Positions 46,696-50,335 of a stretch of 64,000 nt of DNA are shown one piece after another. The stretch lies in assembly GCF_003991155.1 (NCBI RefSeq), contig NZ_CP031293.1. One strand, written 5' to 3'. This DNA comes from Escherichia coli. Its GTDB lineage: Bacteria > Pseudomonadota > Gammaproteobacteria > Enterobacterales > Enterobacteriaceae. Within the stretch, counting starts at the first letter, position 1. Each line of letters opens with the position of its first letter. A program made the position numbers and the translations under genes. The notes below the pieces were generated by a model. The model was not told the origin of the DNA and did not search any database. It saw only the letters and a list, made by a program, of their open reading frames with translations.

Positions 46696-46709
46696 GTAAG
46701 CATCTGTCA

Positions 46710-46746
46710 GAAAGGCCAGTCTCTTATGAGGCTGGCCTTTTTCTTT
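46710..46746 (+). terminator. rpoS intrinsic terminator
   Basis: AAAGGCCAG...CTGGCCTTT stem followed by TTTTTCTTTT. Confidence 0.8.
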
Positions 46747-46771
46747 TGTATGGGGAGTTGGTGTGTTTCGT

Positions 46772-46806
46772 CGCCTGGATAAGACACGTCAGCGTCCCAT
46801 CCGGCA
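46772..46806. repeat. REP-like element
   Basis: CGCCTGGATAAGACACGTCAGCGTCCCATCCGGCA resembles REP consensus. Confidence 0.6.
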
Positions 46807-46815
46807 ATCAACATC

Positions 46816-47223
46816 CTATTTGCTCATCATCTTGCGCACCAGCTGCATAAACAGCTCCTGCTCTTCTGCACTCAAACGCCCCAAAAATTCCTCATCCACA
46901 CTGTCACCAATCGGTATCGCCGCAGCAAGTACCTTTTCTCCTTCGGCAGTCAGCCAGACAAAGCGTCGCCGCTTATCAGCAGAGTCATGTTCTCGTCTGA
47001 CTAAGCCACGATTTTCCATTCGTGCCAACATTTCTGCCAGCGTTGCTTTGGTGCTGACGGCTGCTTCTATCAGTGCCACCTGTTCGATACCAGGTTTATC
47101 AGCAATGGCGCGCATCACCGCGTACTGTGGTTTGGTCAGATCAGGTAACTCGTGCTGCCAGCGAGCCGTGTGCTGCTGAAAAAGCTGTCGTAACTGATGG
47201 AACGCTTTATTTCGTAACGCCAT
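46816..47223 (-). CDS. MarR-family transcriptional regulator; start at internal ATG (MALRNK...)
   Basis: winged-helix MarR sequence; RBS GGAG 7 nt upstream of ATG at 47223; divergent from decarboxylase operon. Confidence 0.8.
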   Translation of the reverse strand: MALRNKAFHQLRQLFQQHTARWQHELPDLTKPQYAVMRAIADKPGIEQVALIEAAVSTKATLAEMLARMENRGLVRREHDSADKRRRFVWLTAEGEKVLAAAIPIGDSVDEEFLGRLSAEEQELFMQLVRKMMSK

Positions 47224-47246
47224 GTAAACTCCGGGCAAACTATCTG

Positions 47247-47261
47247 CCGCTATCATAGCGG
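47247..47261. promoter_or_regulatory. palindrome CCGCTA-tca-TAGCGG in the MarR/decarboxylase divergent promoter region (candidate operator)
   Basis: 6-bp inverted repeat arms directly upstream of the MarR-family gene. Confidence 0.4.
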
Positions 47262-47369
47262 TTTTTCAGTGACGCAGGGGATGTTGTTACTTTTCAGTGC
47301 TTGCCGCGATGAGAACAGAGGCGTATTTTAATAATAACGTTCGTGTACGAACAATTAAGAGAATTAACA

Positions 47370-47963
47370 ATGAGACTGATCGTCGGGATGACAGGGGCCA
47401 CCGGAGCGCCTCTTGGTGTGGCATTACTGCAAGCGCTGCGGGAGATGCCGAATGTCGAGACTCATCTGGTGATGTCGAAGTGGGCGAAAACCACCATTGA
47501 ACTGGAAACGCCTTACAACGCCCGCGATGTTGCTGCCCTCGCAGACTTCTGCCATAACCCGGCGGATCAGGCCGCAACCATCTCCTCAGGTTCCTTTCGT
47601 ACCGACGGCATGATCGTTATTCCGTGCAGTATGAAAACGCTCGCCGGTATCCGTGCCGGTTACGCCGATGGCCTGGTGGGGCGCGCGGCGGACGTCGTGC
47701 TCAAAGAAGGCCGCAAACTGGTGCTGGTGCCGCGTGAAATGCCGCTTAGCACAATCCATCTCGAAAATATGCTCGCACTTTCGCGCATGGGCGTGGCGAT
47801 GGTGCCGCCGATGCCTGCCTTTTATAACCATCCCGAAACGGTAGATGACATTGTCCACCACGTGGTAGCCCGCGTGCTGGATCAATTTGGCCTCGAACAT
47901 CCTCACGCCAGGCGCTGGCAAGGATTGCCGCAGGCCCGGAATTTTTCTCAGGAGAATGAATAA
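47370..47963 (+). CDS. ecdB: UbiX-family flavin prenyltransferase (decarboxylase B subunit)
   Basis: 197 aa from MRLIVGMTGATGA; UbiX/Pad1 family; symbol by analogy with the E. coli O157 locus, from memory. Confidence 0.85.
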   Translation: MRLIVGMTGATGAPLGVALLQALREMPNVETHLVMSKWAKTTIELETPYNARDVAALADFCHNPADQAATISSGSFRTDGMIVIPCSMKTLAGIRAGYADGLVGRAADVVLKEGRKLVLVPREMPLSTIHLENMLALSRMGVAMVPPMPAFYNHPETVDDIVHHVVARVLDQFGLEHPHARRWQGLPQARNFSQENE

Positions 47964-49390
47964 TGGCATTTGATGATTTACGCAGCTTTTTACAGGCGCT
48001 CGACGACCATGGGCAATTGCTGAAAATCAGCGAAGAGGTGAACGCGGAACCGGATCTGGCAGCAGCAGCTAACGCCACCGGGCGTATCGGCGACGGCGCG
48101 CCCGCGCTGTGGTTTGATAATATTCGCGGCTTTACCGATGCCCGCGTGGCAATGAACACCATCGGTTCCTGGCAGAACCACGCGATTTCCCTCGGCCTGC
48201 CGCCAAATACCCCGGTTAAAAAACAGATTGATGAGTTTATCCGCCGCTGGGATAACTTCCCGATTGCCCCGGAGCGCCGCGCCAATCCGGCCTGGGCGCA
48301 GAACACCGTTGATGGCGACGAGATCAACCTGTTCGATATCCTGCCGCTGTTTCGTTTAAACGATGGCGATGGCGGTTTCTATCTCGACAAAGCGTGCGTG
48401 GTTTCCCGCGATCCGCTTGATCCGGATAACTTCGGCAAGCAGAACGTCGGCATCTACCGTATGGAAGTGAAGGGTAAGCGTAAGCTCGGTCTGCAACCGG
48501 TGCCGATGCACGATATCGCCCTGCATCTGCATAAAGCGGAAGAGCGCGGTGAAGATCTGCCGATTGCCATCACCCTGGGTAACGACCCGATCATCACCCT
48601 GATGGGGGCCACGCCGCTGAAATACGATCAGTCCGAGTACGAAATGGCGGGCGCGCTGCGCGAAAGTCCGTACCCGATCGCCACCGCTCCGCTGACCGGT
48701 TTTGATGTGCCGTGGGGCTCGGAGGTGATCCTCGAAGGAGTCATCGAAAGCCGCAAACGCGAGATTGAAGGGCCATTCGGTGAGTTTACCGGCCACTACT
48801 CCGGCGGGCGCAATATGACCGTCGTGCGCATTGATAAAGTCTCTTATCGCAGCAAACCCATTTTTGAATCGCTCTATCTCGGGATGCCGTGGACGGAAAT
48901 CGACTACCTGATGGGGCCAGCCACCTGTGTGCCGCTGTATCAACAACTGAAAGCTGAGTTCCCGGAAGTGCAGGCGGTAAACGCCATGTACACCCACGGC
49001 CTGCTGGCGATTATCTCCACCAAAAAACGCTACGGTGGCTTTGCCCGCGCGGTGGGCCTCCGTGCGATGACCACGCCGCACGGTCTGGGCTACGTGAAGA
49101 TGGTGATTATGGTCGATGAAGACGTTGATCCGTTCAACCTGCCGCAGGTGATGTGGGCGCTCTCTTCGAAAGTGAACCCGGCAGGGGATTTGGTGCAGTT
49201 GCCGAATATGTCCGTGCTGGAACTCGACCCTGGCTCAAGTCCGGCGGGGATCACCGACAAGCTGATTATCGACGCCACCACGCCTGTCGCCCCGGACAAC
49301 CGTGGTCACTACAGTCAGCCGGTGGTGGATTTACCGGAAACCAAAGCCTGGGCTGAAAAACTGACCGCTATGCTGGCCGCACGTCAATAA
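47963..49390 (+). CDS. ecdC: UbiD-family reversible hydroxyarylic acid decarboxylase, C subunit
   Basis: 475 aa; UbiD-family sequence; translationally coupled to upstream gene. Confidence 0.85.
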   Translation: MAFDDLRSFLQALDDHGQLLKISEEVNAEPDLAAAANATGRIGDGAPALWFDNIRGFTDARVAMNTIGSWQNHAISLGLPPNTPVKKQIDEFIRRWDNFPIAPERRANPAWAQNTVDGDEINLFDILPLFRLNDGDGGFYLDKACVVSRDPLDPDNFGKQNVGIYRMEVKGKRKLGLQPVPMHDIALHLHKAEERGEDLPIAITLGNDPIITLMGATPLKYDQSEYEMAGALRESPYPIATAPLTGFDVPWGSEVILEGVIESRKREIEGPFGEFTGHYSGGRNMTVVRIDKVSYRSKPIFESLYLGMPWTEIDYLMGPATCVPLYQQLKAEFPEVQAVNAMYTHGLLAIISTKKRYGGFARAVGLRAMTTPHGLGYVKMVIMVDEDVDPFNLPQVMWALSSKVNPAGDLVQLPNMSVLELDPGSSPAGITDKLIIDATTPVAPDNRGHYSQPVVDLPETKAWAEKLTAMLAARQ

Positions 49391-49400
49391 GGAGAACAAG

Positions 49401-49637
49401 ATGATTTGTCCACGTTGTGCCGATGAACAGATTGAAGTGATGGCGAAATCGCCGGTAAAAGATGTCTGGACGGTATATCAGTGCCAGCATTGCCTTTATA
49501 CCTGGCGCGATACCGAACCGCTGCGCCGCACCAGCCGCGAACATTATCCCGAAGCGTTCCGCATGACGCAGAAAGATATTGATGACGCGCCGATGGTGCC
49601 GAGCATCCCGCCGCTGCTGGCGGAAGGTAAGTGTTAA
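49401..49637 (+). CDS. ecdD: decarboxylase small subunit D (zinc-ribbon like)
   Basis: 78 aa; CPRC...CQHC Cys pairs; position after the UbiD-like gene. Confidence 0.75.
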   Translation: MICPRCADEQIEVMAKSPVKDVWTVYQCQHCLYTWRDTEPLRRTSREHYPEAFRMTQKDIDDAPMVPSIPPLLAEGKC

Positions 49638-49639
49638 TA

Positions 49640-49676
49640 AAAAAGTGCCGGGTAGAGGCTTTGCTTTACCCGGCCA
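49640..49676. terminator. bidirectional terminator between decarboxylase operon and pphB
   Basis: AAAAA GCCGGGTA 12-nt loop TACCCGGC; T-run on the minus strand. Confidence 0.65.
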
Positions 49677-49678
49677 CG

Positions 49679-50335
49679 TTATTTAATTTTATAAAACGAT
49701 AACCGTCTGCTTTCCGGCGAGCCGGTATCAATATAAACCTGATTGGCAAATGTCTGGATATTTATAAACATCATATGTCCAAAGATAAAACAGTCGGCAC
49801 CGTTTATTTCTTTTAACTCTCCCTTGAATGATTTCTGCACGCGATCAACAGGCCAGAGTAATTCGCTTTCTGCTATTTCTTTACCAAACTGATATTCATC
49901 ACCCGGATAATCTGCATGTGCGATGACATATTTTATGTTGTCGTTAGTGATTTCAATAATATGTGGAAGGTGATGGAATTTCAGCAACAGATCTATTGCC
50001 TCTTGTTGCTCTGAATCATTTAAATTGAAAAACCAGTCACCACCGCTGGCAAGCCACATATTTCCATCGCCAGTTTCGAATGCCTCAAGCGCCATCGCTT
50101 CGTGGTTGCCTTTAGCCGATGTAAACCAGGGCTGGTTTAGCAGGCGCAGCACGTTAAGACTCTCCGGCCCACGATCAATATTATCGCCGACAGAAATAAG
50201 TAAGTCGGTTTCAGGGCAAAAAGAGAGTTGATGTAAGCGGGATTGTAATAATTGATAGTCACCATGAATATCACCAACGGCCCATATATGGCGATAGTGA
50301 TGGGCATTGATTTTTTGATAGCGTGTAGATGGCAT
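49679..50335 (-). CDS. pphB: serine/threonine protein phosphatase 2
   Basis: 218 aa; metallophosphatase motifs GDIHG, GDNIDRG, GNHE. Confidence 0.9.
   Translation of the reverse strand: MPSTRYQKINAHHYRHIWAVGDIHGDYQLLQSRLHQLSFCPETDLLISVGDNIDRGPESLNVLRLLNQPWFTSAKGNHEAMALEAFETGDGNMWLASGGDWFFNLNDSEQQEAIDLLLKFHHLPHIIEITNDNIKYVIAHADYPGDEYQFGKEIAESELLWPVDRVQKSFKGELKEINGADCFIFGHMMFINIQTFANQVYIDTGSPESRRLSFYKIK

Follow-up and report, generated by a model that had tools for sequence, protein, structure and literature searches.

Two palindromes in the divergent hosA-decarboxylase gap of Escherichia coli: one almost certainly the published HosA operator, the other very probably not a HosA site

Between a MarR-family regulator gene and a divergent decarboxylase operon, an Escherichia coli chromosome carries a short intergenic gap with one palindrome near each gene start. 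The question this locus raises is whether both palindromes are operators of the neighboring regulator, as an initial annotation of the DNA had proposed, or whether they serve different purposes. We addressed it within a window of 64,000 nucleotides, the whole stretch of DNA analyzed, which comes from the polymorphic rpoS-mutS region of the chromosome. The answer that we consider likely is that this gap of 146 bp serves as control region for the known hosA/decarboxylase pair, in which the palindrome beside the operon (palindrome 2) is the HosA operator and the core of the palindrome beside the regulator gene (palindrome 1) is the ancestral −10 element of hosA.

Positions 46700-49700 are 100% identical to several complete E. 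coli genomes, and RefSeq annotation of an identical strain gives the gene order rpoS, MarR-family regulator, decarboxylase subunits B, C and D, pphB, mutS. Positions 47224-47369 are exactly the divergent intergenic gap, from the hosA start at 47223 (minus strand) to the start of subunit B at 47370. The genes and their ribosome-binding sites are as follows.

46816..47223, minus strand: hosA, MarR/SlyA-family repressor HosA, 135 aa (Pfam MarR, 4.9e-12; RefSeq CDS with the same start)
47229..47232, minus strand: hosA ribosome-binding site, GGAG, 5 nt before the ATG (read from the sequence)
47357..47361, plus strand: subunit B ribosome-binding site, AAGAG, which is GAGG in most genera (sequence and cross-genus comparison)
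47370..47963, plus strand: decarboxylase subunit B, UbiX-type flavin prenyltransferase (NCBIfam VdcB, 312.9 bits, cut-off 290)
47963..49390, plus strand: decarboxylase subunit C, UbiD family (NCBIfam VdcC, 790 bits, cut-off 650)
49401..49637, plus strand: decarboxylase subunit D (NCBIfam VdcD, 121.2 bits, cut-off 30)

The regulator matches the PDB entries titled 'Transcriptional regulator HosA' (8AGA, 8PQ4 and others) at 132 of 134 residues, and a homologue search with it returned a Klebsiella orthologue that carries the name 'HosA'. It is encoded divergently beside palindrome 2, where the regulator of a HosA operator has to lie. With VdcB, VdcC and VdcD all above their cut-offs and the RefSeq names in agreement, the divergent operon encodes subunits B, C and D of a non-oxidative hydroxyarylic acid decarboxylase; subunit B is also identified by a Pfam Flavoprotein match and its RefSeq product name, and subunit C by matches to Pfam UbiD, UbiD_N and UbiD_C. 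An in-frame ATG at 47256, inside palindrome 1, would extend hosA to a 146-aa reading frame. We rejected it as the start because RefSeq, the PDB HosA and all orthologues begin M-(A/E)-L-R-N, and because the codon is absent wherever the central base of palindrome 1 is the other S. The CTCC of the hosA ribosome-binding site is 80-90% conserved across 69 non-Escherichia species.

The hosA-decarboxylase module (46700-49700) is carried by only 2,418 of 5,426 complete E. coli genomes, and its alleles there fall into identity bands of 90-95%, 95-99% and at least 99%. These bands and the patchy presence of the module are consistent with the known mosaic character of the rpoS-mutS region. The annotation of E. 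coli 2021CK-00607 gives subunit B (L009, 521-902) as a pseudogene with a frameshift. Two hosA loci occur in a single metagenome-assembled genome labelled 'Citrobacter sp.': a typical Citrobacter copy, 77% identical to that of E. coli (L027), and one on a 6-kb contig that is 99% identical (L010), on which the match to subunit B begins only at residue 15. This contig is probably a mis-binned E. coli contig. On the far side of hosA, the rpoS terminator lies at 46709-46742 (−25.1 kcal/mol, z = −7.3), and between it and the hosA stop codon we find GCCTGGATAAGACACGTCAGCGTCCCATCCGGCA at 46764-46806, which we take to resemble an E. coli REP (repetitive extragenic palindrome) element.

Both palindromes were recovered by our repeat search.

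47247..47261, no strand assigned: palindrome 1, CCGCTAT-C-ATAGCGG, arms 47247-47253 and 47255-47261 (repeat search)
47339..47352, no strand assigned: palindrome 2, almost certainly the HosA operator, GTTCGTGTACGAAC, consensus GTTCG-YRYR-CGAAC (probe match, conservation and matrix score)

The arms of palindrome 1 are 7 nt long, 100% complementary and 1 nt apart, one pair more than in the form in which the initial annotation had correctly placed it, CCGCTA-tca-TAGCGG. It occupies the interval 24-38 nt upstream of the hosA ATG, so that 23 nt separate its end from that codon, and is followed directly by TTTTT (47262-47266). Palindrome 2, GTTCGT-GT-ACGAAC, has arms of 6 nt each (47339-47344 and 47347-47352) with 2 nt between them, and ends 17 nt before the subunit B ATG; it is the same object that had been described as GTTCG-tgta-CGAAC at about 47340-47353, coordinates that were one base off. 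The placement of the pair, upstream of the regulator start and of the decarboxylase operon, and the T-run after palindrome 1 are as originally described.

If palindromes are counted whose arms measure 6 nt or more and whose spacer is 0-6 nt long, dinucleotide shuffles of the gap contain 0.23 of them per 146 nt, with a probability of 0.20 for at least one and 0.024 for at least two; the density over the whole window is 0.26 per 146 nt. A single palindrome is thus unremarkable and the pair mildly unusual, and chance does not argue strongly either way. The real evidence on both palindromes is conservation and literature, not chance statistics. Two further repeats lie in the same gap. An exact 9-nt direct repeat, TTTTCAGTG, occurs between the palindromes at 47263-47271 and 47291-47299 (28 bp start to start); it is probably due to chance, since its second copy is altered, reading TTTTCAATC, in the alleles of E. 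coli O121, 103605, M3 and 2021CK-00607. AACGTT, a perfect 6-bp palindrome at 47336-47341, overlaps the left edge of palindrome 2, and is not conserved: across 73 species, C and T are about equally frequent immediately before the box.

Palindrome 2 is almost certainly the operator of HosA, and in this respect the original idea was right, although the site was already published. As paraphrased in later papers, Roy & Ranjan (2016, Biochemistry 55:1120) describe HosA of the uropathogenic E. coli UMN026 as repressing both the decarboxylase operon and itself, place its palindromic site downstream of the operon's transcription start, and state that 4-hydroxybenzoate releases HosA, leading to derepression. 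The expectation that the regulator would respond to a phenolic acid is thereby borne out for HosA, with 4-hydroxybenzoate as the ligand. A biosensor paper showed by gel shift that UMN026 HosA binds a palindromic '14-bp TFBS' from which 4-hydroxybenzoate releases it, and measured HosA-4-hydroxybenzoate binding at 4.74 uM by calorimetry; the operator system has been reused in 4-hydroxybenzoate biosensors (PMC6261655, PMC6694116).

Table S1 of the biosensor paper gives the UMN026 probe as CAGAGGCGTATTTTAATAATAAC, the box, then AATTAAGAGAATAAACA..TGAG, and its T_H oligonucleotide contains GTTCGTATACGAAC. The box printed in the supplement, GTTTCGTATACGAAC, has 15 letters in both the forward and the reverse oligonucleotide. 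We took the extra T to be a typesetting or conversion error and rejected this form, because the insertion is impossible on both complementary strands, the text says 14 bp, and the other oligonucleotide has GTTCGTATACGAAC. In an alignment of nine E. coli alleles, two strains, 266917_2 and MLI106K2, carry exactly the UMN026 probe string. The window's site matches the published probe and differs from it only at 47345 (A to G, in the center of the box) and 47365; that is, 13 of 14 box positions are identical to GTTCGTATACGAAC, and the flanks match except for the polymorphism at 47365. Binding, ligand release and repression have been published for the UMN026 allele, and this comparison indicates that the window's site is the same operator.

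Conservation points the same way. Our sample of 80 orthologous loci took one locus from each species and ranged from Escherichia to Rahnella, with HosA identities of 60-99% to the window's protein; in 73 of them subunit B is divergent within 400 nt of hosA, and the other 7 were checked separately. GTTCG-YRYR-CGAAC is found in all 80 species, comprising 73 of 73 divergent loci and the 7 others. In most species 15-24 nt separate it from the subunit B ATG downstream, and in Rahnella about 35 nt. Across the 73 species, box positions 2-5 and 10-14 are invariant and the four central bases vary only as Y-R-Y-R, which makes the window's TGTA a common natural variant. On a matrix built from the 73 sites (maximum 35.0 bits), palindrome 2 scores 31.4 bits, and the next best site in the 64 kb scores −0.4. 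Some loci in the sample depart from the usual layout. In a Superficieibacter sp. (L070, 1366-2793), the divergent operon begins with subunit C and has no subunit B, and both the HosA box and the TATGAT block discussed below are kept; four loci (L061, L076, L080, L087) have no subunit B within the 3-kb flank and keep the box; and at L078, 568 nt separate the box from hosA.

How HosA would act from this site depends on where the operon promoter lies, and its predicted elements are the following.

47301..47306, plus strand: predicted operon promoter −35, TTGCCG (TTGYCN-17-TAnnTT is the top plus-strand promoter in most species)
47324..47329, plus strand: predicted operon promoter −10, TATTTT (conservation; start predicted at ~47336-47337)

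This position was deduced from conservation. The consensus promoter scan of the tool returned no promoter in the gap at its threshold of 9 of 12 positions; the conserved operon promoter matches 8 of 12. Because the threshold missed it, we used a sigma-70 scoring matrix, which is our own approximation, together with cross-species position. CTTG at the −35 is 70-90% conserved, and 53 of 74 species have a distance of 9-10 nt from the end of the −10 to the HosA box. By the predicted start, the box would cover ~+3 to +16, beginning ~2-4 nt after the first transcribed base, which fits the roadblock model implied by the published location 'downstream of the start site'. A HosA dimer would bind GTTCG-N4-CGAAC just downstream of the operon start (promoter TTGCCG-17-TATTTT, start at ~47336) and block RNA polymerase; 4-hydroxybenzoate, on binding HosA, would cause it to leave the DNA and the decarboxylase operon to be switched on.

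Palindrome 1 presents a different picture, and it is very probably not a HosA operator. The case for a second operator that serves hosA autorepression, as the initial annotation had it, starts from position and shape: palindrome 1 is a perfect 7+1+7 repeat that overlaps a −10-like hexamer near hosA, the classic place for autoregulation by a MarR protein, and autorepression of hosA is reported in the papers that paraphrase Roy & Ranjan (2016). Yet the half-sites are unrelated (CCGCTAT in palindrome 1 vs GTTCGTA in the HosA box), and all 20-nt windows across palindrome 1 score between −44 and −93 on the HosA matrix, around the mean of −64 for all window positions. The 7-bp arms are also confined to Escherichia: the left-arm base G47249 is 0% conserved in 69 non-Escherichia species, and even within the genus, Escherichia sp. 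E1V33 has a broken arm (CCGATA), and one pair is weakened to T-G by a C to T change in E. coli O121, 103605, M3 and 2021CK-00607. What is conserved outside Escherichia is an asymmetric C-T-A-T-S-A-T-A-G-C-S-G (47250-47261), whose central base flips between C and G, and such strong conservation on one side only is unlike a dimeric operator. Moreover, the biosensor literature gives a single 14-bp site, and those genera that do have a second HosA site carry a recognizable GATCGTRTRCGAAC elsewhere, 56-57 bp from the first box. On this evidence a second HosA operator at palindrome 1 is highly improbable. The conserved core CTAT-S-ATAG could instead be the site of another, putative dimeric regulator controlling hosA, given that the short palindrome C-TAT-S-ATA-G is 73-100% conserved across genera. 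However, a TATNAT hexamer is self-complementary by nature, and the other conserved bases (A-18, C-16, G-14, and TTAAAA as the −35 at a constant 17 nt) lie on one side only and fit RNA polymerase contacts. To our knowledge, no known enterobacterial motif matches this core, and we regard this reading, too, as very unlikely.

Of 74 species, 35 have the second HosA-like box in the gap upstream of hosA. It lies upstream of the first box at a fixed distance of 56-57 bp and stops 4 nt short of the operon −35. The genera include Klebsiella, Enterobacter, Kluyvera, Leclercia, Lelliottia, Pseudocitrobacter, Phytobacter and Pluralibacter, and the loci are:

second-box loci: L015, L017, L023, L025, L028, L030, L033, L034, L036, L040, L042, L044, L046, L047, L049-L060, L062, L063, L065-L069, L074, L077

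The box is absent from Escherichia, from all sampled Citrobacter loci, and from Salmonella and Kosakonia. The best match to a second HosA box in the window's gap has 6 mismatches. We also considered a degenerate copy at ~47283-47296, the position that the box takes in the other genera, and rejected it, as only ~3 of 14 positions match.

The reading of palindrome 1 that we favor, if only somewhat beyond an even chance, is that its core is the −10 element of hosA.

47252..47257, minus strand: TATGAT, predicted −10 hexamer of the ancestral hosA promoter, preceded by C-16, G-14 and C-13 at 47258-47261 (conservation)

Of 67 species outside Escherichia, 66 have TAT(G/C)AT 27-32 nt upstream of the hosA ATG. 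In 55 of 74 species the hexamer is the −10 of the top-scoring promoter in the hosA direction; it then ends 28-31 nt ahead of the ATG, and most of these promoters read TTAAAA-17-TAT(G/C)AT. The block conserved on the hosA strand is C-S-G-C-TAT-S-AT-A-G, which on this reading would be an extended −10. When the 67 non-Escherichia sequences are aligned on the hexamer, G-14 is 98%, C-13 85%, C-16 82% and A-18 92% conserved, the −35 to −30 TTAAAA is conserved at 92, 83, 79, 62, 77 and 82% for T, T, A, A, A and A, and the spacer between TTAAAA and the hexamer is fixed at 17 nt. One-sided conserved bases with a fixed 17-nt spacer form the pattern of RNA polymerase contacts, which favors a promoter over an operator. 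The argument rests on this consistency of position across species and not on the promoter score, since the matrix is approximate and 6% of shuffled gaps reach 10.5 bits on it.

In Escherichia itself, the hexamer and CCGC are kept, and an A-rich block, CTGAAAAA, stands 4 nt from the hexamer instead of 17. The window retains TATGAT, with a best −35 of only 3.6 bits, below the mean best of 7.0 in shuffles. The Escherichia gap is ~25 nt shorter than that of other genera (145-146 nt vs 157-174 nt; 47258-47300 compared with L016-L031). A deletion of ~13 nt in Escherichia would have moved the old −35, the TTAAAA-like CTGAAAAA, to 4 nt from the −10, and the same deletion would have put the T-run after palindrome 1, giving it the look of a terminator. 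The outer three pairs of the 7-bp arms are probably a coincidence: AGCGG, the discriminator that only Escherichia has downstream of the hexamer, mirrors the conserved CCGCT upstream. Since the −35 is displaced, the role of palindrome 1 as a hosA promoter in Escherichia is uncertain, and it may be a relic.

hosA in this strain could therefore be transcribed weakly from the −10 alone, or else from a second, distal promoter.

47325..47354, minus strand: candidate distal hosA promoter, TTGTTC-18-TAAAAT (8.8 bits, the best hosA-direction score in the window)

The −35 of this candidate (47349-47354) falls partly within the HosA box and partly next to it; the two −10 elements, its own (47325-47330) and the operon's, lie back to back. 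Its 8.8 bits compare with a mean best of 7.0 in shuffles, of which 24% reach 8.5, and its use in Escherichia is in our estimation a doubtful possibility. Were it used, one HosA dimer would block both divergent promoters, and a −35 overlapping the HosA box would account for the autorepression attributed to HosA with no need of a second operator. It is tempting to speculate that Escherichia rewired hosA autoregulation in this way: deletions of ~13 and ~12 nt would have cost it the second box along with the −35 spacing, the distal promoter would have been adopted so that one dimer gates both units, and palindrome 1 would be left as a fossil −10; as a whole, this chain of events seems to us rather unlikely. 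Within such a rewired arrangement, the fossil −10 could possibly be a sigma-S-type extended −10 beside rpoS.

Two explanations that treat palindrome 1 as an RNA hairpin also have to be weighed. If hosA were read from the distal promoter, palindrome 1 would form a hairpin in a leader of ~95 nt, perhaps affecting the stability or translation of the mRNA. In its favor are the distal promoter's standing as the best one in the hosA direction, the loss of the −35 of the proximal promoter, and a minus-strand hairpin of −7.7 kcal/mol (z = −2.4) that ends 11 nt before the ribosome-binding site; but the promoter's score is within shuffle range, as noted above, the hairpin is not conserved, and it has no covariation, so that we judge a leader hairpin unlikely. 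On the plus strand, palindrome 1 and the T-run could be a weak intrinsic terminator. A consensus scan calls the sequence terminator-like (7 pairs, 4 of them G-C, a loop of 3, then TTTTTC), the RNA hairpin has a predicted energy of −9.1 kcal/mol, and rpoS is co-oriented upstream; the structure might then shield the decarboxylase operon from readthrough past the rpoS terminator and across antisense hosA. However, its z of −1.7, with 14 of 200 shuffles folding as well, contrasts with the −25.1 kcal/mol and z = −7.3 of the rpoS terminator. The plus strand has no gene end in the vicinity, only Escherichia has both hairpin and T-run, apparently as a by-product of deletion, and there are no compensatory changes: one variant, C to T, still allows a G-U pair and another breaks a pair. 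Palindrome 1 thus does not combine the stable G+C-rich hairpin, the U-run and the end of a co-oriented unit that define an intrinsic terminator. Both the terminator and the shielding role are very improbable. The initial annotation was reasonable in setting a terminator aside, given the weak and unconserved hairpin, and it probably went astray in turning to an operator instead. RNA structure as the primary explanation of either palindrome was rejected, as the fold energies are within shuffle range.

The finding is largely ordinary, in that regulator, operator, ligand and target operon have all been published already; the only new details are the second HosA box in 35 of 74 species, Escherichia not among them, and the disrupted hosA promoter. 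Its main value lies in annotation: the label of HosA box belongs to palindrome 2, and palindrome 1 should carry no operator label. In addition, the 80-species consensus GTTCG-YRYR-CGAAC reveals which operator bases tolerate change, which can be used in biosensor design, and the presence of a second box in Klebsiella, Enterobacter, Kluyvera and relatives, and not in Escherichia, Salmonella or Citrobacter, points to genus-specific regulatory logic.

How does this gap compare with known systems? Sigma-S-type extended −10 elements reportedly have C at −13, G or T at −14 and a weak −35. The hosA block resembles them in its G-14 (98%) and C-13 (85%) and in the position of the gene next to rpoS. It departs from them at −9 and −8, where it has S and A unlike the sigma-S consensus TATACT, and most genera have a usable TTAAAA −35. 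The closest counterpart is the UMN026 hosA/decarboxylase pair (Roy & Ranjan 2016), which shares the locus, the gene order, the regulator and a box between the operon −10 and the subunit B start. The UMN026 operator has A at 47345 (TATA) and is a perfect 14-mer, whereas the window has G (TGTA) and a palindrome of 6+2+6; other Escherichia species and several genera normally have this G. The published UMN026 operator does not include the window's palindrome 1. The next closest solved relative of HosA is PcaV of Streptomyces coelicolor (PDB 4FHT/4G9Y, E = 2e-16), a protocatechuate-responsive MarR repressor. There, too, a hydroxybenzoate-type ligand frees a MarR repressor from a palindromic operator. 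PcaV is nonetheless a distant homologue that controls another operon (pca catabolism), and its operator sequence is unrelated to the HosA box. Unlike generic MarR-family autoregulation, the window allele has one recognizable operator, and the palindrome beside the regulator gene is not its copy. With MarR, SlyA, HucR and OhrR, the HosA system shares the divergent arrangement of regulator and target, a short palindromic operator over promoter or start elements, and release by a small molecule.
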